Assembly (NCBI GenBank): GCA_963704755.1
Contig: OY969938.1
Location: 2,490,001 to 2,522,000, forward strand
Reading direction: 5' to 3'
DNA length: 32,000 nucleotides
Source: an uncultured Chloroflexia bacterium
GTDB lineage: Bacteria > Chloroflexota > Anaerolineae > Anaerolineales > Anaerolineaceae
Positions 3,431 through 24,376 of the stretch are shown piece by piece. A program made the translations under genes and the position numbers. Under the pieces are notes generated by a model. The model did no database searches and was not told where the DNA came from. It worked only from the letters and a program-made list of their open reading frames with translations. Every line of letters starts with the position of its first letter. Positions within the stretch are counted from its first letter, which is position 1.

Positions 3431-4281
3431 GCGTGCTCATTTACCTGATCGGCATCGCTACTTTTGCCCTGGTCGTTTTGCTGACGGTAGAGTTCCTGCC
3501 GGCCCAGCCCGGCGGTCGCCTGGCCGAGACTCTCGCATCCGGGCAGGTCGAGTTGAGCGGCTGGCGCAAGTCACTCTCGATCCTCGACCGCCCTGTCGCC
3601 CGCTGGACACCGCTACGCTTCCTGCGCCAGGCCAAGGCGGACCTGTATTGGGCCCACCTGGCCGGCAAGTGGACAGGTTGGAACGAGGTACAGTTCCTCT
3701 CCTTGCGGGTTGCCGCCGGGGCGGGCGGTTTTGTAATTGGCAGCCTGGTGTTCAATACGGTTCCACTGGCCCTGGTCTGTACGCTCATCGCCTTCCAATA
3801 CCCGGCCATGGCGGTGAGCGGCATCGCCCGCCGCACACGCCGGCAGTTCCAGGCCCAGCTTCCCGAGTTCATCCAGCTCGTATCGGCCCAGATGTCGGCG
3901 GGGGTCTCGTTGGAAGAGGCCTTGAACCGTACCGCCCGGGCCCAGAGCTTGGTGGGCAGGTGGATGCGCGAGGTGATCCGCATGGCCCGCGGCCGGGGGC
4001 TGGTCGAACAGATGCAGCGCGAAGCACAGGAGTCGCTCCTACCCGAGCTGATCGGGATGGCGGTGCAGTTGGATTTCATCCGCAAGGGCACGGCCCAACA
4101 GCAGTTGATGGGCCAGCTCGCCATGAGCATCGCCGTGGATTACGTCGGCGGGGCCGAGCAGCGCGCCGAAAAGATCGGCTCGGAGCTGGTGATCCCCATG
4201 GTGGTCTTTTATTTCCTGCCCTTCATGGTCACCTTGCTGGCCGTGATCGGCTGGCCGATCTTCGCCAACCTGGGCGGTTGA
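3427..4281 (+). CDS. tadC: TadC-like inner-membrane platform protein (T2SS-F family)
   Basis: It has an ATGA start/stop overlap with tadB. The architecture is the same membrane-helical-membrane layout (LPEFIQLVSAQMSAGVSLEEAL...). Confidence 0.75.
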   Translation: MSVLIYLIGIATFALVVLLTVEFLPAQPGGRLAETLASGQVELSGWRKSLSILDRPVARWTPLRFLRQAKADLYWAHLAGKWTGWNEVQFLSLRVAAGAGGFVIGSLVFNTVPLALVCTLIAFQYPAMAVSGIARRTRRQFQAQLPEFIQLVSAQMSAGVSLEEALNRTARAQSLVGRWMREVIRMARGRGLVEQMQREAQESLLPELIGMAVQLDFIRKGTAQQQLMGQLAMSIAVDYVGGAEQRAEKIGSELVIPMVVFYFLPFMVTLLAVIGWPIFANLGG

Positions 4282-4284
4282 GCC

Positions 4285-4853
4285 ATGGAGAGAGTCAAGA
4301 GCCTGCTGGGGTTCCTCTTCTTCCTGGGCGCGGCCGGTCTGGCTGCGAGTATCGCTATCCGTTCGCCGGGTGTCCTGGCCTGGCTGGCTGCCTTGCACAA
4401 CCTGGTACTGGCGATCCTCTACCTGCTGCGCCAGCCGGCGGCCGCATACGACCGGCCCGGTCTCTGGCTGGGGCTGGTAGCTGCCTTGCTGCCTTCCATA
4501 AGCCAGACCCCGCAGACCCTCCCGGCCTGGGCCACCCTCCTGGGGTTGGCCGGCTATCTCTTGATCTTGTGTTCGCTCTTCAGTCTTGGACCGTCCTTTG
4601 GCATCGCCCCGGCCGACCGCGGGCTGGTCGTACGGGGCCCGTACGCTACCTGCGCCACCCGATGTACCTGGGTGAGTTGGTGCTGCGCTTCAGCCTGGTG
4701 ACGGCCTCCTCGCAGCGGTTCTGGTCGTTCCTCTCTGCAGCCGGGCTGGTTGTATTACAAGTGATGCGCATATTAAAGGAAGAGAGCATCCTGTGCGGGT
4801 ACGGCGCCTACGCCGGCCGGGTCCGCTGGCGCCTGCTCCCGGGAATCTGGTGA
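4285..4853 (+). CDS. ICMT/PEMT-family membrane methyltransferase, frame broken near 4644
   Basis: ORF 4285..4701 is polytopic and hydrophobic and reads ...GLVVRGPY. The neighbouring frame continues RYLRHPMYLGELVLRF...ILKEESIL to the stop at 4853. GPYRYxRHPMYxG is the hallmark of the isoprenylcysteine carboxyl methyltransferase family. One base appears to be missing at 4644/4645. Confidence 0.7.
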
Positions 4854-4875
4854 TGAAAAATTAGGAGGTTCGAAC

Positions 4876-5001
4876 GTGTGTGAACAAATGCCGTTGCTGG
4901 GTATAGCCGGTCCCTGGTTCTGGATCGGGATCGGGGTGGGCACGGCTGCCGGGATTGCCATCTCGTGGCTCGTGCGTTGGATCGCCGAACCGCACGATTG
5001 A
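4876..5001 (+). CDS. small hydrophobic protein (41 aa), below the ORF-track cutoff
   Basis: AGGAGG (4863-4868) lies 7 nt before GTG 4876. The ORF encodes MCEQMPLLGIAGPWFWIGIGVGTAAGIAISWLVRWIAEPHD, a single predicted TM helix. Confidence 0.35.
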   Translation: MCEQMPLLGIAGPWFWIGIGVGTAAGIAISWLVRWIAEPHD

Positions 5002-6176: not shown

Positions 6177-6607
6177 TGATCCGCTCCAGGCGTGCCTACT
6201 CGATGACCTTCTGGGCGGTGTTCTTCGGCTTTGTACTGGTGCCGGCTTTCGCCATGTCCATCGAGCTGGGACGCTATTTCTACGCCCGGGCAGAGATCGC
6301 CAAGTCGGCTGATGCTGGCGCAGTGGCGGCGGCGGCAGAGATCAACCAACGCGTCTTCCAGGACAGCGGCGACCTGGTCCCCACTGAAAAGACATGGAAC
6401 AACGCTCAGACGTATGCCTCGTTAAACAATTCCGCGCTGGCCGCGCGGGGCATCCACGCTTATGTCACCGGCATCTCGATTGACCCGGACGCCGATACCG
6501 TTACGGTGACGGTGTCGGCCGACCTCTCGCTGCTTTTCCCTTCGGTGGTGCCGCAGGTGATCGTCAGCGAAACGGGCACCGCCCAGGTGCGGGCTTTCTC
6601 CAGGTAA
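6176..6607 (+). CDS. TadG-like pilus-assembly protein (N-terminal TadG-type helix)
   Basis: The ATG overlaps the previous TGA. MTFWAVFFGFVLVPAFAMSIELGRYFYARAEIAKSADAGAVAAAAEI fits the TadG-like N-terminal domain pattern. Confidence 0.65.
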   Translation: MIRSRRAYSMTFWAVFFGFVLVPAFAMSIELGRYFYARAEIAKSADAGAVAAAAEINQRVFQDSGDLVPTEKTWNNAQTYASLNNSALAARGIHAYVTGISIDPDADTVTVTVSADLSLLFPSVVPQVIVSETGTAQVRAFSR

Positions 6608-6822
6608 CCAATGGAGGAAGAACCTTTCAAATCCAGGCGGTTCTTGCTGGTACGCAGTGAGGACGAGAGCGGCGTCTCCGGAGTCGGGATCGTGGCCGAA
6701 GGGGTCCAGTTTCAGAGCGGGCGGGTGGTCATGGAATGGCAGGTGGCGCCGTACTCGATGGGGATCTATGGATCAATCGAGGAGGTTGTCGAGATCCACG
6801 GGCATGGAGGAAAAACAAAAGT
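6467..6822 (+). repeat. direct repeat copy A (3' end of the TadG-like gene plus the 74-aa ORF)
   Basis: Hand alignment to 18175-18530 at a constant offset of 11708 shows no indels and about 26 mismatches. Positions 6557-6759 carry a single mismatch (6685). Confidence 0.9.
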
Positions 6823-6835
6823 GATGGGCGCATAA
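6611..6835 (+). CDS. conserved hypothetical 74-aa protein (copy A)
   Basis: The ATG lies 3 nt after the TadG-like stop. A near-identical paralogue is at 18319..18546, and differences between the copies are mostly conservative. Confidence 0.55.
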   Translation: MEEEPFKSRRFLLVRSEDESGVSGVGIVAEGVQFQSGRVVMEWQVAPYSMGIYGSIEEVVEIHGHGGKTKVMGA

Positions 6836-8770: not shown

Positions 8771-10582
8771 ATGGCTAATATTGATCAACGTATCGATAAA
8801 TGGAAAAAGCGATTACTGGACTTAGGAAAGAGAAATAGGCTCATAAATTATCGGGAAACAAAACGATCGAATATAAGAATTATTTCCCCTGAGATTGGTA
8901 ATTTATATTCCCGTTTGGTCTTAAAAGAAGAATTATTGGGGTTCCCATATAGTATTGAGGAAGATTTCGAGAATTCGAGCGAAATCGAACTAAATACAAC
9001 GGTAAAAGGCGATTTGCTAACAGACCGCAACATAAGAGAACAGCAAAAAACCTTACGGAATTTAAGATCCAAAGCGAAAACAGCGATAGAAGAGCAAGGT
9101 GTAAATATTCTTTACGTTGCATTTGGTTTCCTCCAATGGTATGAGAGTACAGCATCATCGCAATTGATAACATCGCCTGTTGTTTTAGTTCCCGTGAATT
9201 TGATCCTCAAATCAATAGCCGATCCCTTTATGCTTGGATTGCATGATGATGAAATTGTTGTTAACCCCACACTGTTATTTAAACTGGAGAATGATTTTGG
9301 GTTATCCATCCCTGAATTTGAAGGAGAAGATAATCATATCGTTAAGTATTTAGACCAAATTAAGAGCATAGTAAACAAAAATAAATGGGATGTTACTTTC
9401 GATGTTGGATTAAGTTTGTTTTCGTTCTTGAAAATAAATATGTACAACGACCTAGAAAAAAATAAGAATAAGATTGTAGCCAATCCAATTATCAAAGCTA
9501 TTGCGGGTGATAAATCTAGCGTCCAGTCTCTACCGGAAGAATATAACAACTTTGACCATGATAAAAATACAAAACCGATAGATACATTTCAGGTAGTAGA
9601 TGCGGATTCAAGCCAGCAGGATGCAATTTTGTTTTCAAAAAAAGGAATTAGTTTCGTTTTGCAGGGACCTCCAGGGACTGGTAAGAGTCAAACCATTACA
9701 AATATAATTGCCGAAGGACTTGCAGACGGAAAAAAAATCTTATTCGTCTCCGAAAAAATGGCTGCTTTGGAGGTAGTATTAAAACGAATTTCCTTAGCGG
9801 GACTCGATGACTTTTGCCTAACATTACACAGTCACAGAGCGAACAAAAAAGAAATTATTAAGGAACTTGGTAAAACCCTTTACCTGGACAAATTTGCAAT
9901 ACAAGGTACAGCTCTAAACCAATTGGAGGCTCTCAGAAGGGATAGAGAAAAACTTAATCAGTATAATCTTGAGTTACATAGCCCTTGTCCGCCCTTAGGA
10001 AAATCAATATTTGAAATAAATGGTCGATTAGCGAAATTGTTTGCTGCGCCTGACTTTATATTCTCTATAGATAATGTAAGTAACACATCTCCAGAAAAGT
10101 TGGATTCGTACACATTTGCACTAAATGACTTTTCAAAAACTATTGGAAAAATGACAACCGATTTTTCAGAGAATCCTTGGCGAAGTTGTCATGTCCAAAA
10201 TGTGACCCATGAGCTTCGTCATGATATTGAAACAAATCTGCAAAGTCTAGTCCCAACTTTCCGTTTCCTGGCTGATATGGCTTATACAACACTGCATGAA
10301 TTGGATCTAGACATCGAACTATCTCTCAAGAATATACCTTTATTAATTGAGGTGTTAAATATTGTTTCAAAGTCCCCCATAGTTCCTTACGAATGGACTT
10401 TTAAAATGAATATTTCTCACCTACTCGAAGATGCCGAGAAATATAGTTTGTTAAAAAAAGAATATGATTCTTTACAACAGGAACTTTCACAAAAGCACAA
10501 CGATAACTTTTTTAAGATTGAAGCCGGCAAAGTTATAAATAACTTCTCATCGTCGGTAGAATCCGCAAAGGGTATACTTTAA
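8771..10582 (+). CDS. DUF4011 / SF1 (Upf1-like, AAA_11) helicase-nuclease, segment 1 of 3
   Basis: The N-terminus IDKWKKRLLDLGKRNRLINYRETK is DUF4011-like. Walker A is LQGPPGTGKSQTITNII. The frame is lost between 10560 and 10582. Confidence 0.8.
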   Translation: MANIDQRIDKWKKRLLDLGKRNRLINYRETKRSNIRIISPEIGNLYSRLVLKEELLGFPYSIEEDFENSSEIELNTTVKGDLLTDRNIREQQKTLRNLRSKAKTAIEEQGVNILYVAFGFLQWYESTASSQLITSPVVLVPVNLILKSIADPFMLGLHDDEIVVNPTLLFKLENDFGLSIPEFEGEDNHIVKYLDQIKSIVNKNKWDVTFDVGLSLFSFLKINMYNDLEKNKNKIVANPIIKAIAGDKSSVQSLPEEYNNFDHDKNTKPIDTFQVVDADSSQQDAILFSKKGISFVLQGPPGTGKSQTITNIIAEGLADGKKILFVSEKMAALEVVLKRISLAGLDDFCLTLHSHRANKKEIIKELGKTLYLDKFAIQGTALNQLEALRRDREKLNQYNLELHSPCPPLGKSIFEINGRLAKLFAAPDFIFSIDNVSNTSPEKLDSYTFALNDFSKTIGKMTTDFSENPWRSCHVQNVTHELRHDIETNLQSLVPTFRFLADMAYTTLHELDLDIELSLKNIPLLIEVLNIVSKSPIVPYEWTFKMNISHLLEDAEKYSLLKKEYDSLQQELSQKHNDNFFKIEAGKVINNFSSSVESAKGIL

Positions 10583-10631
10583 TTCTTCCATTTATGACAC
10601 AGAAGAAAAAATTATTTCATCTGCAAATGAA

Positions 10632-11147
10632 TTGATTATTCTATTGGGAAAAGCGAAAGACAATTTTGTTCTTCTAGATCAATTATGTCAAGAAGGGGTC
10701 AAGATCTTTGGAATTGATGAAATTGAAAATATCAACGGTCTGAAAAACTTTGCAAAATTATTAGATTCGATATTAACAAGCCCTAAACCATCAAGTGAAT
10801 GGTTTGATGAGACTAAGTTCAAAATATTGAAACGGGTAGTGCCAGAAGCATGGGAAGCCTTCGAGACAATTAAAAATAAGACAAATATTATCCTTACATC
10901 TTACAACCGCGAAATCTTTGATCTTGAGTACACAGAAATGCTAACAAGATTTAAGACAGAATATACAACGATATTTAAATTATTCATGAAAAAATATTGG
11001 TCAGATAAAAAAATCATTAAAGCCCTTTATAAAGTTTCTGATAGCAAACTGGATGACCCTGCTATTATTAATGTATTAACTGAACTGTCATCCATAAATG
11101 AGAAAAGACGCTGGATCGAAGAAAATGAGAATTTATTAAAACTTTAA
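10632..11147 (+). CDS. same helicase-nuclease gene, segment 2 of 3 (frame actually open from 10560)
   Basis: This frame reads through from 10560 (NPQRVYFNSSIYDTEEKIISSANELIILLGK...). It is a helical insert region between the helicase motifs. Confidence 0.7.
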   Translation: MIILLGKAKDNFVLLDQLCQEGVKIFGIDEIENINGLKNFAKLLDSILTSPKPSSEWFDETKFKILKRVVPEAWEAFETIKNKTNIILTSYNREIFDLEYTEMLTRFKTEYTTIFKLFMKKYWSDKKIIKALYKVSDSKLDDPAIINVLTELSSINEKRRWIEENENLLKL

Positions 11148-11272
11148 GCGGTGCACATTATGCAAGAGATTACACTGATTGGGTAGGTTTCAGCTTTGCG
11201 CTTGAAAATTTCAAAAATATAATCGATTATTTTTATCCATCAATAATTTCAACAAAAACAAGAGAAATCCTG

Positions 11273-14200
11273 ATGGAAAATATATCAATTAACGATATAA
11301 AAACGATTAACGAGAAAATTAATGGAATTTTAGAAACAGACATTCTTAACGTTTTTATCCAAAATCTGGCAATCTCCGATAATGTCGAAGACCTTCAACT
11401 TTTTGAAATTATCAATAATTTGAAGTCTGCGTTATCAATAATGAGGATGTTAGAAAATATATACGAGATCCTTACAAACAGTTGTTTAAAAGAACTAAAT
11501 TACGGTGAATTAATCAAAGATCTATCAAAACTTGGAAGAATGCAAGAGATAGCGAATCAAGTTGGAATCCAATATGAGCATCTAAGAATAAAATATTTAT
11601 TCTTCTTCAATGGAATTGACACTGATTGGGGCAGGATTTTGGATTCTCTTGCATGGACAAATGAATTTAAAAAAATAATAGAAAAATTCCGCCTATCAAA
11701 AGTTTGCGTAAAAAATACTTGTGAAGATGAAAAATTTATCACAAACGCCAAACAACGATTAAGAGAAATCACATCGAAGATTAATGAAATTAATACAGAT
11801 CTGCATTGGTACTTTTCATTATTTGATGATAAGGATGAACTATTAACTACAAATCTCCATACTTTCCTGACCCGGTTAGAGGATTGTTCAAACAGTCTTT
11901 CAAGCTTAGAGGAATGGATTGATTTTCGAAGCAGTCGAGAAAAATGTAGGGATATTGGCCTATCTGATTATATTGAGAAAATTCAAATCCATAAGGTAAA
12001 TAAAGAAACTATCGTACCAGCATTTCTTAAGCGATTTTATAGATTGTGGCTCGACGCAATACTGCCAAATTATCCCGCCGTATATTCTTTCAGAAGGCGT
12101 ACTCAGGATGAATTAATTGAAGAATTTAAAAACCTGGATAAAAAGCAGTTTATCATCGCTAAATCTAGAATCCGTCAAAAATTAGCCACAAAGCTACCAA
12201 ATTTAAATCAATTTTCTTCAGCAGTCGATGAAGTAGGTGTACTAAAACGAGAATTAAATAAGCAACGAAGATTTATGCCTTTACGTAAACTTTTCAGAGA
12301 AATCCCCAATCTCCTATTAACACTTAAACCTTGCTTGATGATGTCGCCTCTTTCTGTTAGCTTGTTTTTGAATGCAGATATTTATAAATTTGACATTGTT
12401 GTTTTTGATGAAGCATCACAAGTTTGTACAGAAGATGCAATTGGTGCGATATTGAGGGGATCTCAAGTCATCATTGCTGGCGATACCAATCAGCTTCCCC
12501 CCACGAATTTCTTCTCAGCCAGCACATCTGATTCCGATTTTGATAATAACGATTTGGATGAAGATGATTATGATGACACTGACGCATATGAATCGGTACT
12601 TGACGAGGCCGTTACAGTGCTGCCAGAACGAACGCTTCGATGGCATTATAGAAGTCATCATGAGCATTTAATCGCGTTTTCAAATGTAAAAATCTATCGA
12701 AATAACCTAATTACATTTCCATCCCATATAAATAATGAACCAAACAACGGAGTGGAATATATTTATGTTCCTGATGGGGTGTATGACAGAAGTGGGAAAA
12801 GAAACAATATTAATGAGGCTAATAAAGTCGCTGAACTCGTTTTCGAACATATTCAAAATTTTCCCAGTCGTTCTTTGGGTATCGTGACATTTAGTGAAGC
12901 TCAACAGCAAGCAGTCGAAATGGCGATTAGACAAATGAGGTTAGAAAATCAGCAGTTTGAAACCTTTTTTTCAGAGGATCGAGAAGAGGACTTTTTTGTA
13001 AAGAACTTGGAAAATGTACAGGGGGATGAAAGGGATACCATTATTTTTAGTATTGGTTACGCTAAAGACCATAATGGTGTTATGCATATGAATTTTGGAC
13101 CTCTCAGTAAAAGTGGGGGCTATCGGCGGTTAAATGTTGCCATTACTCGTGCAAAATATAACGTCAAGCTAGTTGGCTCAATTGAGCCAACGGATATCAT
13201 TATTGAAAATACAAACTCCGAAGGAGTAAAAATGCTTCGGTCCTATATTGAATTCGCCAAGGATGGCGAAAGTGTATTGCAAAGAGAATTATCCATCCCG
13301 GATTCAATATATACGGATTCTCCATTCGAAGATTCAATTTATCAATTCTTGGTATCCAAAGGTTATTCAGTCGCTACACAAGTTGGTTGTTCCGGATACA
13401 GGATAGATTTGGCCATTAAGCACCCGACATTAAGTGGGAGATTTGTAATAGGAATAGAGTGTGATGGTGCCTCTTATCACTCCGCTCGAACGGCGAGGGA
13501 ACGTGATAGGCTACGCCAGGCTGTTCTTGAAGATAATGGGTGGAAAATATATCGAATTTGGTCCACTGATTGGATAAAGGATCCTCTTACCGAGGGGAAG
13601 AAATTGACCACAGCAATAGATTATGCAATTACTAGCTATAACAAAAATGGTTTCACCATAAAAAAAAACGAGAATGGTGAAATAAAAACCACGAAGGAAT
13701 TTAGCTCGTCAATTGAAGTGCCTATAAAGGGAAACTCCATTACTAAAATTGATAATAATAATCCATACAATTTTGATTATTATGTTCTAGCAGATATTAA
13801 AAAAGTAAGAAGAAGCAACGATGATATTCAATATTTAACCGATATTTTGAGATATGTGATTGAGCAAGAATACCCCATCCATTTTGAATTACTTTGTAAA
13901 CGAGCTACCTACCTCTTTGGAAATCAAAAAGCCACAGTAAAAATAAGGAGAAATGTCAAATATATTATCAATGGATATTTACAAAATGAGGTAATTTTTC
14001 GTAATGGTTTTTATTGGCCAAAAAGAAATTCTAAGATCAAAGTGAGGATTTCTAATTCCCCCGGTACAGAAAGAAAATTGGAATACATTTGCTCTGAGGA
14101 AATAGCAGAAGCAATGTTCGTGATATCTGGTCATAGTTTTGGTATAAAAAAAAGTGATTTATTCGTCGCAACAGCTCGTGCTTTTGGATTTAACCGTACT

Positions 14201-14305
14201 GGAGGGCATATAGTTGTGGCGATGGAAACTGCATTTGATTTATTAATAGGTACAGGCAGAGTTGATTATATAGATGAAAAAGTAATTATTAAACCAAATT
14301 CCTAG
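11273..14305 (+). CDS. same helicase-nuclease gene, segment 3 of 3 (frame open from 11129): AAA_11/AAA_12 motifs II-VI, Vsr/DUF559-like endonuclease, DUF3320-like tail
   Basis: Helicase motifs: FDIVVFDEASQV (motif II), IIAGDTNQLPPT (III), RWHYRSHHEHLIAFSN, VQGDERDTIIFS, GYRRLNVAITRAK (VI). The endonuclease core is GYRIDLAI...IGIECDGASYHSARTARERDRLRQAVLEDNGWKIYRIWSTDW. The C-terminal YPIHFELLCKR... region follows. Confidence 0.85.
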   Translation: MENISINDIKTINEKINGILETDILNVFIQNLAISDNVEDLQLFEIINNLKSALSIMRMLENIYEILTNSCLKELNYGELIKDLSKLGRMQEIANQVGIQYEHLRIKYLFFFNGIDTDWGRILDSLAWTNEFKKIIEKFRLSKVCVKNTCEDEKFITNAKQRLREITSKINEINTDLHWYFSLFDDKDELLTTNLHTFLTRLEDCSNSLSSLEEWIDFRSSREKCRDIGLSDYIEKIQIHKVNKETIVPAFLKRFYRLWLDAILPNYPAVYSFRRRTQDELIEEFKNLDKKQFIIAKSRIRQKLATKLPNLNQFSSAVDEVGVLKRELNKQRRFMPLRKLFREIPNLLLTLKPCLMMSPLSVSLFLNADIYKFDIVVFDEASQVCTEDAIGAILRGSQVIIAGDTNQLPPTNFFSASTSDSDFDNNDLDEDDYDDTDAYESVLDEAVTVLPERTLRWHYRSHHEHLIAFSNVKIYRNNLITFPSHINNEPNNGVEYIYVPDGVYDRSGKRNNINEANKVAELVFEHIQNFPSRSLGIVTFSEAQQQAVEMAIRQMRLENQQFETFFSEDREEDFFVKNLENVQGDERDTIIFSIGYAKDHNGVMHMNFGPLSKSGGYRRLNVAITRAKYNVKLVGSIEPTDIIIENTNSEGVKMLRSYIEFAKDGESVLQRELSIPDSIYTDSPFEDSIYQFLVSKGYSVATQVGCSGYRIDLAIKHPTLSGRFVIGIECDGASYHSARTARERDRLRQAVLEDNGWKIYRIWSTDWIKDPLTEGKKLTTAIDYAITSYNKNGFTIKKNENGEIKTTKEFSSSIEVPIKGNSITKIDNNNPYNFDYYVLADIKKVRRSNDDIQYLTDILRYVIEQEYPIHFELLCKRATYLFGNQKATVKIRRNVKYIINGYLQNEVIFRNGFYWPKRNSKIKVRISNSPGTERKLEYICSEEIAEAMFVISGHSFGIKKSDLFVATARAFGFNRTGGHIVVAMETAFDLLIGTGRVDYIDEKVIIKPNS

Positions 14306-14360: not shown

Positions 14361-16685
14361 ATGCTATCCAATAAAGTTGCCGAGGGGATCATGCTTCAAC
14401 AAGTGGTTAAAGATCGGATCTTAAAATCCTACGAAAATAAACAAAATTCGGGTGATCTCCCATCCGCCCAACAACTCGAAACATACTATCGATTATTCCG
14501 GCAAAGATTTGGCCCTAATACCCTCTCGGGCTTGGATGGCGAGCCCTTACTCAACCTAATGTACGATCTTGGCAATCGAGACAGCCTGGTGTATTGGCTG
14601 GAATACAAAAACGATGCTGAATTCCCGGCAATTTTTGGCAGTATCGCCGGCGGGAGTGCTTTGAAATATGGAATCTTTCGTCGAAGAGAAACAGGGGCTT
14701 GGACAATCGGATCACCTCAAAAGCAGGTTGAAATATCGGTTGCTGAAGCCATAGAAATCGCTCGGCGGAATTGGGATCAATTGATGAAAGGTGTTTTCAT
14801 TCTTCAAAACCTTCCTGATTCATCCGAGGATGCAGTTTATTTCAAACTGCAAGAAGATTTACACAAAGAAGCGCCAGGTGTCCAAGATTCCCTTTGGGGA
14901 CACAAGTATTTTCACCTGCTATTTCCGGAAAAGCTGGACACTTTTCATATGGAGAATTTACAGCAGTTTCATTTGATCAAGTTACTTCAAATGCCTCCTG
15001 AGAAAACCGGCCGCTATACATGCGCCGGCCGGTTCGTGGCCCTGGCACGTGAATGTGGCTTATCGATGAATATCCTGACGACTGTTCTCAACGATATCGA
15101 TGGGCGGCTTTATCGCTACTGGAGAATGGGAACACATGGAGGAGAAGACAACAGAAGTTATTGGAGCGAAATGGAACAGGGGAGTTACGTTTCGATTGGC
15201 TGGGATAAATTGGGAGATCTGTCTTGGCTTGAATTCAATAAAGAATTGAAAGAAAAATTTTTTAAATTGGTTTTGGATAAATACAAGAAAGATCCAGCCG
15301 TAACCGGTGGCACAGTCTCAAAAATTTTCAATTTTGTGGTTGGTATGCAAGAAGGTGATATCGTTCTAGGTGCTGATGGTAGACGCATTCAAGGTGTTGG
15401 CAGGGTTGTAGGGGGATATGAGTATCAACCCAATGGCGAATTTCCACATCACCGCCAGGTCGAATGGCTCACATTAGATCCTTGGGAATTACCTCAAACA
15501 GAGGGTCTTCAGTTTGCTATATACGCAATGAAGAAGCCTGAAAATTTAATTGCTATTGAAGAACGACTCCTCCAATATCCCGGAAAGCCCAGAAAACCTT
15601 TTATTGAAAGTGAGGGAGGTGGTTCAAGACGAACGGTACATCTTGAAGGAATATCTGGCCGGATTCAAGCTGTTTTGGATCGGAAGAAGCAAATCATTCT
15701 ATATGGCCCTCCAGGTACCGGAAAAACGTATTGGGCCAATCGCACTGCGAAAGATTTAGGGGCTTATTCTATGTTCGGAAAGTCTTTTTCAGAAATAATC
15801 GAAACCGAGAAACAGAAAATTCTAGGAAAATTTGGAGAAAAAAACGGGGTTGTCAGGCGTTGCACTTTCCATCCGGCTTATGGGTATGAAGATTTCATCG
15901 AGGGTTACCGACCTGTCTCGACCAACGGTCAATTGAGTTTCGAGAAACGCTCGGGGATATTTAAAACCATTTGTGAGGATGCACAAAAAAATCCTAATCA
16001 ACCTTATTATTTGATAATCGATGAAATCAATCGCGGAGATTTACCACGGATATTTGGGGAGCTGCTGACATTGCTGGAAAAGGATAAAAGAGGGCAGTCT
16101 ATCATTCTTCCTCTCAATGGAGATCTCTTTCAGGTCCCAGAAAATGTTTTCGTGATCGGCACGATGAACACTGCTGACCGTTCGATTGCTCTGCTAGATA
16201 CAGCTCTTCGCAGGAGGTTTGGCTTTTTAGAGCTAATGCCCGATTCGAGTTTATTGAACTTATCCATTGAGGGGTTACCATTAGGCCCTTGGCTGGATGC
16301 ATTGAATGAACGGATCCGTACCCATATCGGAAAGGATGCGCGAAATTTACAAATTGGGCATGCTTATTTTTTTGAGGGAGAGAAACCAATTAACGACAAG
16401 TTACGTTTTGTCCGAGTTTTACGCGAAGACATATTACCCTTGTTGGAAGAATATTGCTATGAAGATTATGACAACTTAAGTGAAATTCTTGGGGATCAGA
16501 TTGTTGATGCAAAAAGCCAAAGATTTAGGGAGGAGGTTCTATCACCAGAGCGTTGGGATCAATTGCTCATTGCTCTGCTTGGCCCAAATCGCGAAGTAAC
16601 AACCTCTAAAGAAGTAATTCAAACCCAGCAAAATGAACTCGAAGATCAATTAGACGAGGATACCCTAGATGTTGAATCCAATTAA
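14361..16685 (+). CDS. mcrB: McrB-like AAA+ GTPase with a long N-terminal putative DNA-reader region
   Basis: Motifs: ILYGPPGTGKTYWA, LIIDEINRGDLPRIFGELLTLLE, VIGTMNTADRSIALLDTALRRRFGF. An alternative start is ATG 14391, behind GAGGGG. Confidence 0.85.
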   Translation: MLSNKVAEGIMLQQVVKDRILKSYENKQNSGDLPSAQQLETYYRLFRQRFGPNTLSGLDGEPLLNLMYDLGNRDSLVYWLEYKNDAEFPAIFGSIAGGSALKYGIFRRRETGAWTIGSPQKQVEISVAEAIEIARRNWDQLMKGVFILQNLPDSSEDAVYFKLQEDLHKEAPGVQDSLWGHKYFHLLFPEKLDTFHMENLQQFHLIKLLQMPPEKTGRYTCAGRFVALARECGLSMNILTTVLNDIDGRLYRYWRMGTHGGEDNRSYWSEMEQGSYVSIGWDKLGDLSWLEFNKELKEKFFKLVLDKYKKDPAVTGGTVSKIFNFVVGMQEGDIVLGADGRRIQGVGRVVGGYEYQPNGEFPHHRQVEWLTLDPWELPQTEGLQFAIYAMKKPENLIAIEERLLQYPGKPRKPFIESEGGGSRRTVHLEGISGRIQAVLDRKKQIILYGPPGTGKTYWANRTAKDLGAYSMFGKSFSEIIETEKQKILGKFGEKNGVVRRCTFHPAYGYEDFIEGYRPVSTNGQLSFEKRSGIFKTICEDAQKNPNQPYYLIIDEINRGDLPRIFGELLTLLEKDKRGQSIILPLNGDLFQVPENVFVIGTMNTADRSIALLDTALRRRFGFLELMPDSSLLNLSIEGLPLGPWLDALNERIRTHIGKDARNLQIGHAYFFEGEKPINDKLRFVRVLREDILPLLEEYCYEDYDNLSEILGDQIVDAKSQRFREEVLSPERWDQLLIALLGPNREVTTSKEVIQTQQNELEDQLDEDTLDVESN

Positions 16686-18003
16686 TCAGGTAGAGCAATC
16701 ACAACAGGTAAACTTGTATTTATCAGAATGGACCATAGCTACTCCTGAAACTCATCCAGTTTTAGAGGGTTTTTCTTTCGAGAATGAGCTTCCTGCTCGA
16801 CAGATGGCTCAACGGCTAAGTGGATCAAGTCAAGTAGAGTTCTTGGAATTGACTAACGGGTTGGAAATTCGCACAAATTCAGTGGTAGGCAGCATTCGTC
16901 TTGGTAACCTATCCTTAACAATTACTCCGAAAATTAACGGGTTACCTTTATTCCGATTGATCCGCTTTGCTTATGGATTACGGGATCTGGAATTCTTTAC
17001 TGCGCAGAATTTCAGCAATCAATACCTGGCTTTCCAGGATTTATTGATTCTCCAACTCGTTTTGGAAGTTCAAGAGCTTTTTAGTCGAGGATTATTGCGC
17101 AACTACATTCGGAAAGAGGAGAAGCTTGCCAGCCCGGTTGGGAGAATAAATTTTCAACAAATTGCGAAACAAGGCGGATTGGTAGAAGCATCATTACCTT
17201 GTACAAATTCCATCCGCCTGGAAAATTGTCTTCATAATCGTGTAATCCTCTCCGGGTTAATTTTGGCTAACCAGTTTACTAGAGATATTTCTTTAAAAAG
17301 TTCTACCCGTCAGCTTGCCAAATTATTTATCCAAAGCATCGAAAAGGTGCGGTTGAATTTTGACATCCTCAGGCAGGTTGAGCGCGAATTGAACCGGCTC
17401 ACCGAGGCGTACAATCCTGCCTTGAGACTGATAGCATTATTGTTGGGTAATATTGGTGTATCAACTGATGAAGACCGTAATCAAGTACAGGTAAATGGCT
17501 TCCTCTTTGATATGAACCATTTCTTCCAGGCTTTGCTTTCAAGGTTGCTTAATAACTACCTGGATGGGTATGAGGTTGAAGATGAGCATAAACTAAAAGG
17601 ACTTCTAGCATTCGTACCCGGATATAAATTACCCGGTCGGCTTGACGCGATGCCCAGGCCAGATTTTGCCATATTCGAGAAAGGAAAGCTACTTTCGCTA
17701 TTCGATGCCAAGTACCGGGACCTTTGGAACACTGGTCTGCCTAGAGATATGCTCTATCAGCTCATCGTGTATGCACTAAGTCAGAAGGTAGAACGAAAAG
17801 CCACAATCCTTTATCCAAGCCTGGACGAAATTTCCAAGGATGCGATTATTCAAATCAATGAACCCATACAAGGTTCTGCAAATGGACATATTATTTTACG
17901 CCCCGTCAATTTACATAGAATGGAAAGCATAATCGTTGAAAAAAGAACCGATGAATTGAAATCATTCACTCACCAATTGATTTTTAAGGAACTTCTTAAT
18001 TAG
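16669..18003 (+). CDS. mcrC: McrC-like PD-(D/E)xK nuclease subunit
   Basis: It overlaps the mcrB end by 17 nt. The nuclease core is PDFAIFEKGKLLSLFDAKYRDL. Size and position are typical of McrC. Confidence 0.8.
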   Translation: MLNPINQVEQSQQVNLYLSEWTIATPETHPVLEGFSFENELPARQMAQRLSGSSQVEFLELTNGLEIRTNSVVGSIRLGNLSLTITPKINGLPLFRLIRFAYGLRDLEFFTAQNFSNQYLAFQDLLILQLVLEVQELFSRGLLRNYIRKEEKLASPVGRINFQQIAKQGGLVEASLPCTNSIRLENCLHNRVILSGLILANQFTRDISLKSSTRQLAKLFIQSIEKVRLNFDILRQVERELNRLTEAYNPALRLIALLLGNIGVSTDEDRNQVQVNGFLFDMNHFFQALLSRLLNNYLDGYEVEDEHKLKGLLAFVPGYKLPGRLDAMPRPDFAIFEKGKLLSLFDAKYRDLWNTGLPRDMLYQLIVYALSQKVERKATILYPSLDEISKDAIIQINEPIQGSANGHIILRPVNLHRMESIIVEKRTDELKSFTHQLIFKELLN

Positions 18004-18174
18004 ACCCCAACTAAACAAATTTGCTGAAATTATCTTCACCAATACAAGCTGTAAATTAACGGCGAAGATGGCAAGCATGGATCGGATTCTTACATTTCAA
18101 AGGCTTAAATTCTCAAACTCGTATTTCGCTAATTTTCTGAACTCTTAATAACATTTATCATCATCTCCTTCCTT

Positions 18175-18315
18175 ACCGGCATCTCGATTGATCCGGATGC
18201 AGATACCGTAACGGTCACGGTCTCCGCCGACCTCTCGGTACTTTTCCCCTCGGTGGTACCGCAAGTGATCGTCAGCGAAACGGGCACCGCCCAGGTGCGG
18301 GCTTTCTCCAGGTAA
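18175..18315 (+). pseudogene. orphan 3' fragment (46 codons plus stop) of a TadG-like gene
   Basis: It reads TGISIDPDADTVTVTVSADLSVLFPSVVPQVIVSETGTAQVRAFSR*. There is no upstream coding continuation because the flank is A+T-rich island DNA. Twelve nt differences from copy A give only one amino-acid change. Confidence 0.75.
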
Positions 18316-18530
18316 CCAATGGAGGAAGAACCTTTCAAATCCAGGCGGTTCTTGCTGGTACGCAGTGAGGACGAGAGCGGCGTCTCCGGAGTTGGGATCG
18401 TGGCCGAAGGGGTCCAGTTTCAGAGCGGGCGGGTGGTCATGGAATGGCAGGTGGCGCCGTACTCGATTGGAATTTATGGGTCAATCGAGGAGGTGATTGA
18501 GGTCCATGGGCATGGGGGAAAGACAAGGGT
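18175..18530 (+). repeat. direct repeat copy B
   Basis: See copy A. It aligns at a constant offset of 11708 without indels. Confidence 0.9.
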
Positions 18531-18546
18531 CTTACGATTGGCATGA
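18319..18546 (+). CDS. conserved hypothetical 75-aa protein (copy B)
   Basis: Paralogue of 6611..6835. The C-terminus differs (KTRVLRLA versus KTKVMGA). Confidence 0.55.
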   Translation: MEEEPFKSRRFLLVRSEDESGVSGVGIVAEGVQFQSGRVVMEWQVAPYSIGIYGSIEEVIEVHGHGGKTRVLRLA

Positions 18547-18806: not shown

Positions 18807-20340
18807 ATGCCTAAGAACAATCAAAAAAGTAAAAACGGGAACGGCGCTGCGCTGGGAATTGAACACGAACTATGGGAGGCGGCCGACAAGCTGCGCGGCC
18901 ACCTGGACGCGGCCGATTACAAGTCGGTGGTGCTGGGGCTGATCTTTCTCAAGTATGTCTCGGACATGTTCGAGCAGGTGCGTGCCCGTGTGGAGGAAGA
19001 GGGCTTGGACGATCCCGAGGACCGCGACGTGTACCTGGCGGAGCGGACCTTCTGGGTGCCCAGGGACGCGCGCTGGAAGGTCCTGCAGGACAATGCCAAG
19101 CAGGAATCGATCGGCAACCGGATCGACCAGGCCATGGAGGCCATCGAGCGGGACAACCCCTCGTTGAAAGGCATGCTCCCCAACAATTATGGTCGCGCCA
19201 CGCTGGACAAGCGCCGGCTGGGCGACCTGGTCGACCTGGTCAGCAACAAGATCAACTTTACTGACGAGGAAAGCCGCAAGCAGGATACGCTTGGGCGGGT
19301 GTACGAATACTTCCTCTCGCAGTTCGCCAGCCAGGAAGGCCGCAAGGGCGGCGAGTTCTACACGCCGCGCTCGGTGGTGCGTGTGCTGGTAGAAATGCTG
19401 GCTCCCTATAAAGGACGGGTCTTCGACCCGTGCTGTGGTTCGGGCGGGATGTTCGTGCAAAGCGAGAAGTTCGTCGAGGCGCACGGCGGCCGGGTGGGCG
19501 ACCTGTCGGTGTACGGACAGGAATCCAACCCCAACACCTTCAAGCTGGCCAGGATGAACCTGGCCATTCGCGGCATCGAGGGCGACCTGGGCAAGGAGCC
19601 GGCCGACTCGTTCCACCGCGACCAGCATCCCGACCTGAAGGCCGACTTTGTGCTGGCAAATCCGCCCTTCAATATGAGCGATTGGGGCGGCGATCTGCTG
19701 CGCGAGGACAAACGCTGGCAGTACGGCCTGCCACCGGCCGGCAACGCCAACTTCGCCTGGGTGCAGCACTTCATCCACCACCTCTCGCCCAACGGGGCGG
19801 CCGGCTTTGTGCTGGCCAACGGCAGTATGTCGAGCAACACCTCCGGAGAAGGCGAGATCCGCAAGAACATCATCGAGGCCGACCTGGTGGACTGCATGGT
19901 GGCCCTGCCGGGGCAGTTGTTCTACAGCACGCAGATCCCGGTGTGCCTGTGGTTTTTAGCCAGGAACAAGAAGAACCGCGGCGGGCAGACCCTGTTCATC
20001 GACGCGCGTAAGCTGGGCACACTGACCGACCGGGTGCACCGCGACCTGAGCGACGAGGACATCGCCCAGATTGCCGGCACCTTTCACACCTGGAAGAAGG
20101 GCCAGGGCTACGCAGATGTACCCGGCTTTTGCAAATTGGTTTCGATTGAAGAAATCCGTGCGCAGGGTTACGTGCTCACGCCTGGGCGTTATGTAGGTGC
20201 AGCGGAACTGGAGGAAGACGACGAGCCATTTGGTGAAAAGATTGCAAGATTTAACAAGAGAGTTGGAAGAGCAGTTTGAAGAAGGGAGGAGATTAGAAGA
20301 CCTTATTAGTAAAGGGCTAAAAAAACTTGAATATGAATAA
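18807..20340 (+). CDS. hsdM: type I R-M N6-adenine DNA methyltransferase HsdM (frame breaks near 20250; annotated stop 20279, repaired stop 20340)
   Basis: The N-terminus is [33 protein letters not shown]. Motif I is [11 protein letters not shown] and motif IV is LANPPFN. After ...FGEKIAR the +1 frame reads [29 protein letters not shown], a typical HsdM C-terminal helix that overlaps the hsdS ATG. Confidence 0.9.
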
Positions 20341-21490
20341 AGAATGGGAATTGGTTAGGATTGGAGAAATTTGCGAAGCCATCTTCGATGGACCACACGC
20401 CACGCCTAAGAAAACAACCAAAGGCCCAATTTTTCTCGGTATTTCGAATCTTCAAAATGGAAGAATCGACCTTTCGGATGTCGATCACCTTTCGGAAGAT
20501 GATTTTATCAACTGGACCCGAAGAGTTACTCCCCGAGAAAATGATGTAGTTTTTTCATATGAAACACGCTTGGGTGAAGCAGCAATTGTTCCTAAAGGCC
20601 TGAGGTTTTGTCTGGGTCGGCGTATGGCATTGATACGTCCTAATACACAAAAAGTAGATCCCCGCTTTTTGCTTTATTCATACCTGGGGCCAGAGTTTCA
20701 ACAGACCCTGCAGGCACGAACAGTTCACGGAAGCACAGTAGATAGAATTCCGCTTATCGAATTTCCCGATTTTCCAATTTCTATACCTCCTCTTTCTGAA
20801 CAACGCGCCATTGCAGGGATTCTCGGTGCGCTGGACGACAAGATCGAACTCAACCGACGCATGAACCGCACGCTCGAGTCCATTGCACAGGCGGTGTTTC
20901 GAGAATTAATGAAGGATGAAGACGGAAAGATAACGACTGGTAAGGTTGGAGAAGAATACAATTTGACAATGGGACAATCGCCGCCAGGTGAAACTTATAA
21001 CGAAGAAGGTGTAGGGACTCCTTTCTATCAAGGGCGTCGAGATTTCGGCTTTAGGTATCCAGAAAATCGCGTTTATTGCACTGCCCCCACAAGGTACGCA
21101 AAATCGGGTGATACCCTTGTTAGCGTTAGGGCTCCTGTTGGTGATATTAATATGGCAAAGGAAGATTGTACAATCGGCAGAGGAGTTGCTGCAATCAGGC
21201 ATAAAACAGGTAGTCGTTCTTACACTTACTATGCAATGAAATACCTCGAAAACGATTTTAAGAGTTTTGAAGCAGAAGGAACAGTTTTTGGCTCAATAAA
21301 TAAAGCAGATTTCCAAAATCTTGAAATTAGCATCCCTACAATTGAACAGGTACAGAAATTTGAAGAAATTTGCTTCCCGATCGACCAAATGATCGAGAAC
21401 AATGAAAAAGAAACCCACACGCTGGCTAATCTGAGAGATAGTCTGCTGCCAAAGTTGATGCGAGGCGAAGTGCGTGTGAAGGATGTCTGA
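20333..21490 (+). CDS. hsdS: type I R-M specificity subunit HsdS (two target-recognition domains)
   Basis: WELVRIGEICEAIFDGPH...IPPLSEQRAIAGILGALDDKIELNRRMNRTLESIAQAVF is the central conserved region, and ...LANLRDSLLPKLMRGEVRV is the C-terminal conserved region. The gene is A+T-rich, unlike hsdM and hsdR. Confidence 0.9.
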   Translation: MNKEWELVRIGEICEAIFDGPHATPKKTTKGPIFLGISNLQNGRIDLSDVDHLSEDDFINWTRRVTPRENDVVFSYETRLGEAAIVPKGLRFCLGRRMALIRPNTQKVDPRFLLYSYLGPEFQQTLQARTVHGSTVDRIPLIEFPDFPISIPPLSEQRAIAGILGALDDKIELNRRMNRTLESIAQAVFRELMKDEDGKITTGKVGEEYNLTMGQSPPGETYNEEGVGTPFYQGRRDFGFRYPENRVYCTAPTRYAKSGDTLVSVRAPVGDINMAKEDCTIGRGVAAIRHKTGSRSYTYYAMKYLENDFKSFEAEGTVFGSINKADFQNLEISIPTIEQVQKFEEICFPIDQMIENNEKETHTLANLRDSLLPKLMRGEVRVKDV

Positions 21491-21593
21491 ACTATGATTG
21501 GAATGATTTTTGGATGGACTATGAGTGAACCGGGACGCATGGATAGGACCTTTGCATTCAGCTAAATCGTGATCCCAGACCAGGGGAAAAGGC

Positions 21594-22019
21594 ATGATCA
21601 ACGAACAATATCTCCACTCAGAATTGACGGGTAAAATCATCGGTTGCGCGATGGAAGTCCACAAAACGCTGGGGAACGGATTCCAGGAAGTCATCTATCA
21701 ACGTGCGTTGGAAATCGAAATGAGTCAGCAGGGACTGGCGTTCAGCCGCGAGCACGAAATGGACATTTTCTATAAAGGCGCCAAGATCGGCAATCGCCGC
21801 GTGGATTTCTTTGTAGAGGAGAAAATCATGGTTGAGATCAAGGCGATCATTCAATTGGAGGACGTTCACCTGGCCCAGGCCATCAACTATTTGGAAGCCT
21901 ACGGACTAGAAGTTGGTCTGCTGCTCAACTTTGGCAGCCGCAGCTTGCAATTCAAACGGGTCATGAAGCCAACAGGAGATCATGCAAAAATGCCTCGTCT
22001 AAATCAAAGTCCATCATAG
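21594..22019 (+). CDS. GxxExxY protein (PD-(D/E)xK-like, TIGR04256-type)
   Basis: SELTGKIIGCAMEVHKTLGNGFQEVIYQRALEIEM...DFFVEEKIMVEIKA...QAINYLEA...GLLLNFG is the characteristic pattern, including GFQEVIY. Confidence 0.85.
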   Translation: MINEQYLHSELTGKIIGCAMEVHKTLGNGFQEVIYQRALEIEMSQQGLAFSREHEMDIFYKGAKIGNRRVDFFVEEKIMVEIKAIIQLEDVHLAQAINYLEAYGLEVGLLLNFGSRSLQFKRVMKPTGDHAKMPRLNQSPS

Positions 22020-22061
22020 AATCATGGAAATCATAGTTCAAGACAATGCGTACATGCTACG

Positions 22062-22101
22062 GTTGATGCGGGGTGAAGTGCGCGTGAAGGATGTGGAGTA
22101 A
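22062..22101 (+). pseudogene. relic 3' end of an hsdS gene
   Basis: It reads (L)MRGEVRVKDVE*. Positions 22062-22094 match 21454-21486 (the real hsdS 3' end) at 30 of 33 nt. Confidence 0.65.
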
Positions 22102-22103
22102 AA

Positions 22104-23842: not shown

Positions 23843-23873
23843 AACTGTTTTTTTGAGCAGGAGGGGTGGAATT

Positions 23874-24374: not shown

Positions 24375-24376
24375 CT

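Follow-up and report, generated by a model that had tools for sequence, protein, structure and literature searches.

Positions 8771 to 14305 of the window, by which we mean the whole 32,000-nucleotide stretch of DNA that was analyzed, very probably hold one gene, acquired horizontally, that encodes a helicase-nuclease of the Hhe/ProA superfamily and is interrupted by two single-base indels; this high confidence covers what the gene is and what kind of breaks it has, but not how the breaks arose. Translation of the gene as sequenced ends at 10582, and the assembly's version, in which 190 codons lie out of frame, cannot yield the full-length product, a 210-kDa protein of 1,844 residues.

Three reading frames, one gene

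Three ORFs on the plus strand, at 8771-10582, 10560-11147, and 11129-14305, together make up one gene of 1,844 codons, in agreement with a sequence-only reading of the region that had proposed a gene of about 1840 codons. The N-terminal fragment (8771-10582, 603 codons), with a Shine-Dalgarno sequence AAGGGG 6 nt upstream of its ATG, encodes a DUF4011 domain together with the Walker A-containing first half of RecA1, a helicase domain. The middle fragment (10560-11147, 195 open codons) was assigned to part of a poorly conserved insertion in RecA1 from its match to the PADLOC profile PDC-S37 (E 1.9e-11) and its colinearity with homologues. The C-terminal fragment (11129-14305, 1,058 open codons, first ATG at 11273) contains the remainder of the insertion, the Walker B half of RecA1, RecA2, the nuclease, and a DNA-binding-like C-terminal region. 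The three pieces matched PDC-S37 colinearly, ORF1 over profile positions 2-612, ORF2 over 498-668, and ORF3 over 640-1542 (E 1.6e-281), which supports a single-gene architecture. Coverage by the merged 1,844-aa translation was 100% for many proteins in the range 1,830-1,860 aa, and hundreds of intact homologues, each about 1,840 aa long, aligned gaplessly to the repaired protein over their whole length, at up to 60% identity.

Frame analysis placed ORF1 and ORF3 in a common frame (coordinate mod 3 = 2) and the middle piece in another (mod 3 = 0), which is open from 10560 to 11147; the frame of ORF3 is open from 11129. As sequenced, the reading frame is therefore broken twice, within the overlaps 10560-10582 and 11129-11147, exactly where the sequence-only reading had put two 1-nt shifts. 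That reading had also called the shifts compensating, which is true only arithmetically, since translation stops at 10582. Neither junction was gapped when the merged protein was aligned to 17 homologues, and each break is thus a single-nucleotide indel. Junction 1 (10568-10582, mod 3 = 2 to mod 3 = 0) contains one extra nucleotide, the likeliest candidate being a T of CTTTAA (10578-10580), with a G of AAGGG (10570-10572) as the alternative; removal of the T gives AKGILNSS, which fits a conserved LN. Junction 2 (11136-11144, mod 3 = 0 to mod 3 = 2) lacks one nucleotide, most parsimoniously by a change from A5 to A4 at 11138-11141, and the merged segment ENENLLKTLSG is equal in length to that of 17/17 homologues.

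The repaired protein retained 349 of the 351 columns that were invariant among 20 intact homologues, and in a leave-one-out comparison this retention was as good as that of intact members. It carries one private 1-aa deletion and no extra stops. We also looked for regular splitting of homologues at these positions and found it in 0/70 loci from isolate genomes and short-read or other MAGs.

Domain architecture

The domain order anticipated from sequence, namely DUF4011, an Upf1-like SF1 helicase, a Vsr-fold nuclease, and DUF3320, was recovered with Pfam, the last of these only as a sub-threshold, DUF3320-like tail. DUF4011 (PF13195) spans residues 14-172 (8810-9286) and was matched over positions 1-158 of 158 (E 3.9e-41). 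The helicase domain AAA_11 is divided between ORF1 (positions 3-204 of 257) and ORF3: Walker A, GPPGTGKS, lies at residues 299-306 (9665-9688) and was invariant in 21 aligned sequences, and Walker B, DEAS, lies at merged residues 1213-1216 (12407-12418), again in invariant columns and within the C-terminal part of AAA_11. RecA1 carries the poorly conserved insertion, of about 780 aa. The RecA2 domain, AAA_12, follows at 12626-13180 (E 5.3e-18), and the nearest solved relatives of the helicase by sequence were IGHMBP2, Sen1, and Upf1. The MTES_1575 domain, defined in PMC3710099, was matched at 13325-13618 over positions 1-96 of 96 (E 1.3e-36) as a Vsr-fold endonuclease whose residues D1546, E1563, D1565, and H1570 (13406-13480) were invariant, while DUF559 scored 17.1 bits against a cutoff of 20.6. 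The C-terminal region at 13829-14302 is predicted to form tandem winged-helix domains; its columns are conserved, its DUF3320 match was weak (17.9 bits against a cutoff of 25), and most homologues carry a precomputed DUF3320 annotation. According to PMC3710099, DUF3320 overlaps two wHTH domains.

An AlphaFold2 model of residues 1-277, covering DUF4011, reached a pLDDT of 79 and a pTM of 0.72. A fold search of the PDB with this model returned no significant match (best E 0.25). A few PD-(D/E)xK nucleases appeared in the PDB search, at a probability of 0.07 or less, and they were not counted as evidence.

Genomic setting and origin of the breaks

The gene lies in a cassette of 34.7% GC within a host of 62.6% GC, and this low-GC cassette is bracketed by direct repeats of about 370 bp. 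The left repeat (6467-6835, plus strand) comprises the 3' end of a Tad-like gene and a 74-codon ORF; the right repeat (18175-18545, plus strand) is 95% identical to it and starts abruptly inside Tad-like gene sequence. McrB begins 55 nt downstream of the gene and is followed by McrC, and a Type I R-M system and Drt4 are further neighbors. A TIGR04141/DUF6119 gene in the island is also frameshifted, by a lone indel. The GC contrast and the flanking repeats bear out the proposed accessory island, and the gene directly precedes McrBC, as had also been proposed. This linkage did not hold as a general feature: a McrB homologue was present in the flanks of 1/80 homologous loci and McrC in 0/80, and McrB, McrC, and Hsd homologues each occurred at no more than 2/80, leading us to reject a general functional link with McrBC. 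Neighbors at the 24 closer loci were heterogeneous, so that, as for PDC-S37-type systems, no obligatory partner was seen; the exception was a Clostridia subclade with an adjacent Ser/Thr kinase gene. When homologue neighborhoods were inspected for variable-region settings, 4/5 loci lay among R-M, Abi, or transposase genes, but one homologue was placed between uvrB and mfd. Plasmids carry homologues as well, in 463 records, of which 207 are conjugative. Promoter and terminator scans gave counts at or below shuffle expectation.

Assembly error, a possibility absent from the sequence-only reading, is at least as likely an origin of the breaks as real mutation, and we lean towards it. Long-read consensus errors are somewhat likelier as the cause of the two indels than real, very recent inactivating mutations, because the gene is otherwise undamaged, a neighboring gene has a similar lone indel, and the other broken copies were found only in two long-read MAGs. 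Among the 80 loci, frame-broken homologues numbered 0/20 in isolates, 0/50 in short-read or other MAGs, and 2/10 in long-read-style assemblies. A Logan contig from run ERR11571143 was 99.9% identical to the window, with motif-linked C-to-T differences at 3/9 GANTC sites and a short-run G indel; these differences are typical of nanopore data, and the window was probably drawn from a long-read-only assembly. Against this lean stand unbroken homologues in eight other long-read MAGs; nor was a clear frameshift seen in about 14 kb of further coding sequence from the island or in about 12 kb from the host. Exact-protein look-ups for ORF1, ORF2, and ORF3 found no copies, and when the 360 aa across the junctions served as query in a homology search, the sole match was ORF1 of the window itself, with no independent broken copy.

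If both indels are instead real, which we judge somewhat short of an even chance, the gene would be a pseudogene, inactivated very recently within a defence island that is itself in decay; selection might, for example, have acted against a helicase-nuclease that is AT-rich and potentially toxic to its own cell after transfer to a GC-rich host. The sequence context of the breaks fits this reading, as both lie at runs of 4 nt or less or outside any run, away from long homopolymers, and all homopolymers of at least 6 nt within island ORFs (37/37, including an A9 and two A8 in this gene) were in frame. The second broken gene, TIGR04141/DUF6119, is what decay would predict, and the remaining window genes appeared intact, indicating that the assembly is not generally poor. 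The closest relative (L016), whose GC is likewise low and that of its host high, is broken as well. That break, however, likewise lies outside a long run, which weakens the homopolymer argument. Against decay, the repaired protein showed no sign of relaxed constraint beyond the breaks themselves. Among the 70 unbroken loci in isolates and short-read or other MAGs are four foreign copies of low GC whose hosts have higher GC (L008, L009, L017, and L038), and the other broken copies all came from a single series of long-read MAGs; one of these copies changes frame 7 times.

A more elaborate reading, which we consider very improbable, is that PDC-S37-type proteins form a mechanistically distinct defence system rather than just another Hhe, and that the gene here is kept switchable or off through its frame breaks, by recoding or by reversible slippage in short runs, as it would be toxic in a foreign GC-rich background. 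The observations from which the distinct-subfamily part of this reading starts are the sub-cutoff Hhe and ProA scores, the long RecA1 insertion, the lack of a PDB relative for DUF4011, and the kinase-paired subclade.

Programmed recoding, in which ribosomes would shift by +1 at junction 1 and by -1 at junction 2 to produce full-length protein and so regulate a toxic effector, is more improbable again. Junction 1, AAGGG-TATA-CTT-TAA, does resemble the prfB site in having an SD-like element, CUU, and a stop codon: the SD-like AAGGG precedes CTT TAA by 4 nt, and slipping by +1 at this point would give AKGIL-NSS with the conserved LN. The heptamer ACTTTAA also terminates both upstream frames. However, ACTTTAA was not over-represented (2 found against 3.6 expected), and at junction 2 it is native K-T-L-S coding sequence read out of frame. 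Junction 2 would need a -1 shift yet lacks an X_XXY_YYZ heptamer, although an A-site slip on A_AAA alone is conceivable. None of the 70 homologues from isolates and short-read or other MAGs changes frame, and the break in the neighboring TIGR04141/DUF6119 gene is clearly mutational, since a conserved SHLF motif is kept in the shifted frame. With no conserved site, no slippery heptamer at junction 2, and a junction 1 that is only prfB-like, a prfB-type or dnaX-type programmed frameshift is close to refuted. We give almost no credence to a genuine split system, in which separate polypeptides would assemble into a functional helicase-nuclease: ORF1 and ORF3 do have plausible start codons, but the arrangement would part Walker A from Walker B of one RecA1 domain, the only start for the middle ORF is a TTG 72 nt into the open frame, no naturally split homologue was seen among the 80 loci, and the junctions are single-base frame offsets within continuous homology.

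Proposed function and relation to known defence systems

By analogy with Hhe, the intact 1,844-residue protein may act as a one-protein anti-phage system. Its Upf1-like SF1B motor would load onto and then translocate along invading nucleic acid, which the fused Vsr-fold (MTES_1575) endonuclease would cut, and the N-terminal DUF4011 and the C-terminal winged-helix-like region might bind or sense the substrate. Several observations speak against a defence role: the protein scores under both NCBIfam equivalog cutoffs, PDC-S37 is a candidate only, one homologue occupies the uvrB-mfd position described above, and in P. aeruginosa a large DUF4011 gene belongs to the core genome.

As a discovery the gene matters little, as its family is already catalogued as anti-phage: Hhe is validated, ProA is named by NCBI, and PDC-S37 is listed by PADLOC. 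For the same reason it is not a new system but an ordinary gene of a defence island. In annotations, the three ORFs should become one entry, labeled as a frameshifted gene of the Hhe/ProA family; the island also holds McrBC, Type I R-M, Drt4, and another gene with a frameshift. In the sample examined, broken copies of this AT-rich gene occurred only in certain long-read MAGs, which advises caution over reporting "pseudogenised defence genes" without read support. The kinase-coupled Clostridia subclade and DUF4011, which has no known fold, are reasonable targets for work on Hhe-like mechanisms.

The sequence-only reading had taken the family to be unnamed among defence systems, which is contradicted by Hhe itself, by the NCBIfam ProA and Hhe models, and by the PADLOC candidate. 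PDC-S37 (PADLOC model PDLC05009, a phage defence candidate) was the best-scoring profile of the defence library, at 1,475.6 bits over positions 2-1542 of 1550 with no curated threshold applied, and scored more than twice as high as the next model in that library; the intact homologues P0007, P0050, and P0108 reached the same score as the repaired protein. PDC-S37 is a single-gene system, like the window gene with no conserved partner, whereas the window protein exceeds the profile by about 290 aa, the surplus lying in the RecA1 insertion. In the searchable literature we found no experimental validation of this computational candidate. The second-closest curated model, NCBIfam NF058533 "anti-phage protein ProA", gave 1,337.9 bits, below its equivalog cutoff of 1,500 (intact homologues 1,275-1,368). 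It is colinear with the window protein over model positions 356-1903, and its first approximately 355 positions have no counterpart, so that the window protein begins at the DUF4011 region of ProA. Literature searches did not locate a source paper for ProA.

Helicase-level likenesses extend further. The sequence-only reading had compared the helicase with that of Mokosh, and this was borne out, in that Hhe, MkoA, and MkoC are all assigned to SF1_Upf1 and MkoA and MkoC share an Upf1-like SF1 core with the window protein. The Mokosh matches were weak and confined to that core (MkoA 97.9 bits, positions 787-1096 of 1112; MkoC 75.6 bits), and Mokosh lacks DUF4011 and the Vsr-fold nuclease, having another nuclease and a partner; membership in Mokosh was rejected because only the helicase core matched. 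The eukaryotic proteins IGHMBP2, Sen1, and Upf1 have SF1B motor motifs in common with the window protein, but match in the RecA-like core alone (E 1e-10 to 1e-4) and have no nuclease, DUF4011, or insertion of about 780 aa.

In organization the window protein matches Hhe/HheA (Gao et al., 2020), which combines DUF4011, an Upf1-like SF1 helicase, and a Vsr-type endonuclease in one protein. The window protein has the same N-terminal DUF4011, an SF1 helicase core in which both Walker motifs are present, and, C-terminal to the helicase, a Vsr-type nuclease with the catalytic acidic residues. As cited in bioRxiv 10.1101/2022.06.16.496414, hhe (Gao et al., 2020) is active against lambda, T3, T7, and PhiV-1, and the nuclease mutation E1731A abolishes defence. 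NCBIfam NF042953 (Hhe) gave 904.6 bits, below its equivalog cutoff of 2,000 (intact homologues 887-925), and PADLOC Hhe (PDLC02194) gave 634 bits against 1,476 for PDC-S37. The window protein belongs to a distinct subfamily that occurs chiefly in Bacillota, not Enterobacteria. Judged from these profile scores, the window gene represents a sister subfamily of the validated systems rather than an equivalog.

A helicase-nuclease gene in three frames

Three ORFs occupy 8771-14305 on the forward strand: ORF1 (8771-10582, 603 codons), ORF2 (10632-11147, 171 codons, its frame open from 10560) and ORF3 (11273-14305, 1,010 codons, its frame open from 11129). A three-frame stop map indicated that ORF1 and ORF3 share a common frame and that ORF2 is shifted by one base. 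In Pfam searches, ORF1 matched DUF4011 and the half of AAA_11 that contains Walker A, and ORF3 matched the other end of AAA_11, with Walker B, as well as AAA_12 and MTES_1575, a nuclease of the Vsr fold (E 1.3e-36); these domains had been named in the sequence-only reading, but the DUF3320 and DUF559 matches that it also expected fell below threshold. The PADLOC candidate profile PDC-S37 was matched colinearly by all three ORFs. That reading had proposed one gene of about 1840 codons with frames overlapping from 10560 and 11129, and the conceptual merge indeed gave a 1,844-aa protein with full-length colinear homologues. A homology search with this repaired protein returned more than 7,700 homologues, mostly from Bacillota and annotated as "DUF4011 domain-containing protein", "DUF3320 domain-containing protein" or "very-short-patch-repair endonuclease", many of them 1,830-1,860 aa long with 100% query coverage and identity up to 58%. 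Alignment with 17 homologues was gap-free through both junctions, which makes each break a single-base indel. By these comparisons, ORF1 to ORF3 are one broken gene, not three; a genuine three-polypeptide system was rejected because the split would part Walker A from Walker B.

Junction 1, between ORF1 and ORF2, carries one surplus base within 10568-10582. Dropping one T of CTTTAA gives AKGILNSS, matching a conserved Leu-Asn, and a surplus G in AAGGG is a possible alternative. Junction 2, between ORF2 and ORF3, has lost one base within 11136-11144, and an A4-to-A5 repair yields ENENLLKTLSG, equal in length to every aligned homologue. The shifts had been called compensating, which holds as arithmetic only: there are two single-base indels, but translation of the gene as sequenced terminates at 10582. 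The repaired protein keeps 349 of the 351 columns invariant in 20 intact homologues (exceptions L340I and V1523I), a retention equal to that of any intact member in a leave-one-out control, and its private changes in this alignment comprise no insertions and one 1-aa deletion. Walker A, Walker B, the helicase motifs and nuclease residues D1546, E1563, D1565 and H1570 are all present. An insertion of some 780 residues separates the Walker A part of RecA1 from its Walker B part, and the frameshifted segment falls in the least conserved portion of this insertion. Judged on its sequence, the gene is without decay besides the two indels.

Origin of the frame breaks

Consensus (assembly) error is the somewhat more probable source of the two indels. 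A real recent mutation is the lesser but still substantial possibility, and several observations speak for it: all 37 homopolymers of at least 6 nt within island ORFs are in frame, among them an A9 and two A8 runs of the helicase-nuclease gene, and the breaks themselves lie at runs of at most 4 nt or outside any run. Moreover, other island genes match family models over full or near-full length, and the high-GC host genes displayed no clear hidden frameshift in a GC3 frame plot. In the same plot, at about 4650-4880, the GC-rich codon position moves, close to where ORF 4285-4701 ends, to the frame used by ORF 3648-4853; this could mark a small gene of its own within the Tad locus or a further frame break.

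Against mutation, a TIGR04141/DUF6119 gene in the same island (24341-25681 and 25683-25958) is also broken by one base and, like the helicase-nuclease gene, otherwise looks intact. Its break at about 25667-25672 (AGC-T-CAC) involves no homopolymer; model positions 431-516 (the last ~88 residues) match at 25683-25958 in the other frame (E 8e-18), deleting one base brings back the conserved GSSTLSHLFNQG, and the conserved SHLFNQG motif resumes straight after the break. A Logan contig from run ERR11571143 (L001), 99.9% identical to 14418-18294, differs from the window only at 14675, 14772, 15666 and 16246, by three C-to-T changes and one G3-to-G4 indel that in L001 disrupt McrB by shifting its frame and turning a CAA codon into a TAA stop. 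The three C-to-T changes are each the last base of GANTC (3 of the 9 sites in the stretch), and this pattern of methylation-motif and short-run errors is typical of nanopore data. It suggests GANTC methylation in the host with nanopore-type systematic errors in that run and, taken with the assembly of a poorly sampled lineage as one 4.87-Mb contig, that the window comes from a long-read assembly. Separately, GANTC is about two-fold under-represented in the whole window (68 sites vs 133 +/- 9 in shuffles).

Among 80 homologous loci, frame changes were absent from all 20 isolates and all 50 short-read or other MAGs and present in 2 of 10 long-read-style assemblies, these two (L016 and L030) both being "MFD ... 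contig_" MAGs of one series. L016 (7396-12920), the closest relative, is a Chloroflexia MAG locus with 60% identity (gene 39% GC vs flanks 62%) whose gene is split over three frames by at least two breaks; the L030 gene (10001-16366) has seven frame changes. The homopolymer argument for mutation is weakened because the first break of L016 also falls outside a long run.

Programmed recoding, in which a +1 shift at junction 1 and a -1 shift at junction 2 would yield the full-length protein, was rejected. Junction 1 (AAGGG-TATA-CTT-TAA) does resemble the prfB +1 site and ACTTTAA ends both upstream frames, but this heptamer is not over-represented (2 found vs 3.6 expected) and at junction 2 is native coding sequence in the wrong frame, the -1 shift there would lack a slippery heptamer, and isolate genomes and short-read or other MAGs held no split homologues. 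Any other origin of the indels is very improbable.

The defence island and homologous loci

The gene lies in a typical defence island, which adjoins a Tad pilus operon. GC content is 31-37% in the gene region vs 58-68% in the outer parts of the window (34.7% for the gene itself vs 62.6% in host flanks). Direct repeats of about 370 bp with 95% identity (6467-6835 and 18175-18545), each comprising a Tad-like gene 3' end and a 74-codon ORF with no Pfam match, enclose an 11.7-kb low-GC cassette of DUF4145, DUF7662, the helicase-nuclease gene, McrB and McrC, bearing out the proposal that the gene is placed directly upstream of McrBC within an accessory island. No integrase was found inside the cassette; homologous recombination could lead to its gain or loss. 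McrB (14361-16685) is unusually long at 774 aa, and its residues 265-371, N-terminal to the AAA+ domain, match PADLOC candidate PDC-S02 models (E ~6e-14) and may form a distinct DNA-recognition domain.

Downstream of the cassette lies a Type I R-M operon (hsdM, hsdS ... hsdR; 18807-29131), with hsdM and hsdR high in GC; hsdS and hsdR are separated by four inserted low-GC genes: GxxExxY/PDDEXK_3 (21594-22019), Drt4 (22104-23633; 565 bits, cutoff 450), a DSPc-like phosphatase (23853-24374) and the frameshifted TIGR04141/DUF6119 gene. The PDDEXK_3 gene is flanked by a 40-nt repeat of the hsdS 3' end (21447-21486 and 22055-22094) and a 37-nt inverted repeat (21488-21524 and 22004-22040), as if it were a small insertion. 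The 90%-identity clusters of HsdM (490 aa) and HsdR (1,054 aa) otherwise hold unrelated 56-57-aa cyanobacterial or Logan proteins, which looks like a clustering or indexing oddity rather than biology.

Scanning representative genomes gave at least 593 homologous loci in many bacterial phyla and Bathyarchaeia. Overall, the homologues are not uniformly housekeeping, the outcome that the sequence-only reading had named as a refutation. Among five loci inspected, the homologue sat beside Type I R-M (L004, L005), beside a McrB-like/DUF2357-PDDEXK_7 pair, Abi_2, Schlafen-AlbA and transposases (L003), amid a transposase, an integrase fragment and a DUF3987 gene (L002), or between uvrB and mfd (L006). 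For 24 closer loci, the 129 nearest ORFs were heterogeneous, with TIR, Schlafen-AlbA, methylases, serine recombinases and MkoA-like helicases each near a few. Adjacency to McrBC is not conserved, since flanks of the best 80 loci held one McrB and no McrC homologue (HsdM 2, HsdR 1). A GC difference of over 5 points between gene and flanks was seen in 20 of 50 loci, and the nearest relatives are likewise low-GC genes within higher-GC hosts. Homologues occur in 463 plasmid records (207 conjugative) and hardly at all in phage genomes. Not every family member is accessory, because the core genes of Pseudomonas aeruginosa include a large DUF4011 gene, which flanks hotspot cDHS1 (PMC10250203).

In five Clostridia MAG loci, a gene for a ~565-aa Ser/Thr protein kinase (Pkinase E 2e-28 to 4e-31) follows the helicase-nuclease gene by 10-40 nt (L012:15552-17243, L015:15528-17210, L023:17107-18813, L025:8376-10058, L027:16618-18339). 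These kinases are orthologous (mutual identity 47-73%), making a two-gene variant possible; the window contains no kinase gene of this type.

Relation to catalogued anti-phage proteins

The intact protein would act as a single-polypeptide effector, in which an SF1B motor might translocate along invading nucleic acid, the fused Vsr-fold endonuclease would cleave it, and the C-terminal winged-helix-like region and N-terminal DUF4011 may bind or sense substrate. DUF4011 (residues 1-277, 8771-9601) gave a moderately confident alpha/beta AlphaFold2 model (pLDDT 79, pTM 0.72) with no significant Foldseek match in the PDB (best E 0.25). In PMC3710099, MTES_1575 is defined as a nuclease of the Vsr fold that is fused to SF1 helicases, and DUF3320 is described as overlapping a pair of winged-helix domains. 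Among solved structures, IGHMBP2, Sen1 and Upf1 are nearest to the window protein.

While the observation of one split gene was confirmed, its interpretation was right only in part: the claim that the family is absent from the named defence systems failed because of matches to PDC-S37 in PADLOC and to ProA and Hhe, both named anti-phage proteins. The repaired protein scored 1,475.6 bits on PDC-S37, in a match spanning nearly the entire profile, compared with 634 bits for PADLOC Hhe. It fell below cutoff on NCBIfam "anti-phage protein ProA" (1,337.9 bits, cutoff 1,500, the alignment starting at model position 356) and "DUF4011 domain-containing anti-phage protein Hhe" (904.6 bits, cutoff 2,000). 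Because intact homologues give the same scores, the subfamily is sister to these two proteins and equivalog of neither. By sequence, then, the gene, about 60% identical to its nearest relative, belongs to an already catalogued anti-phage helicase-nuclease superfamily.

In bioRxiv 10.1101/2022.06.16.496414, Hhe, the system from Gao et al. 2020 that joins DUF4011, a helicase and a Vsr nuclease, is reported to act against lambda, T3, T7 and PhiV-1 and to lose defence upon nuclease mutation E1731A. Experimental support for the proposed mechanism is confined to this nuclease-site requirement, and it concerns Hhe rather than the present subfamily. Hhe has the same DUF4011-helicase-Vsr nuclease plan as the window protein, yet the latter scores far under the Hhe equivalog cutoff. 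An Upf1-like SF1 clade unites Hhe with MkoA and MkoC (10.1101/2024.02.29.582594), and the suggested analogy to Mokosh holds for the helicase core, to which the likeness is limited, but not for the remainder of the protein.
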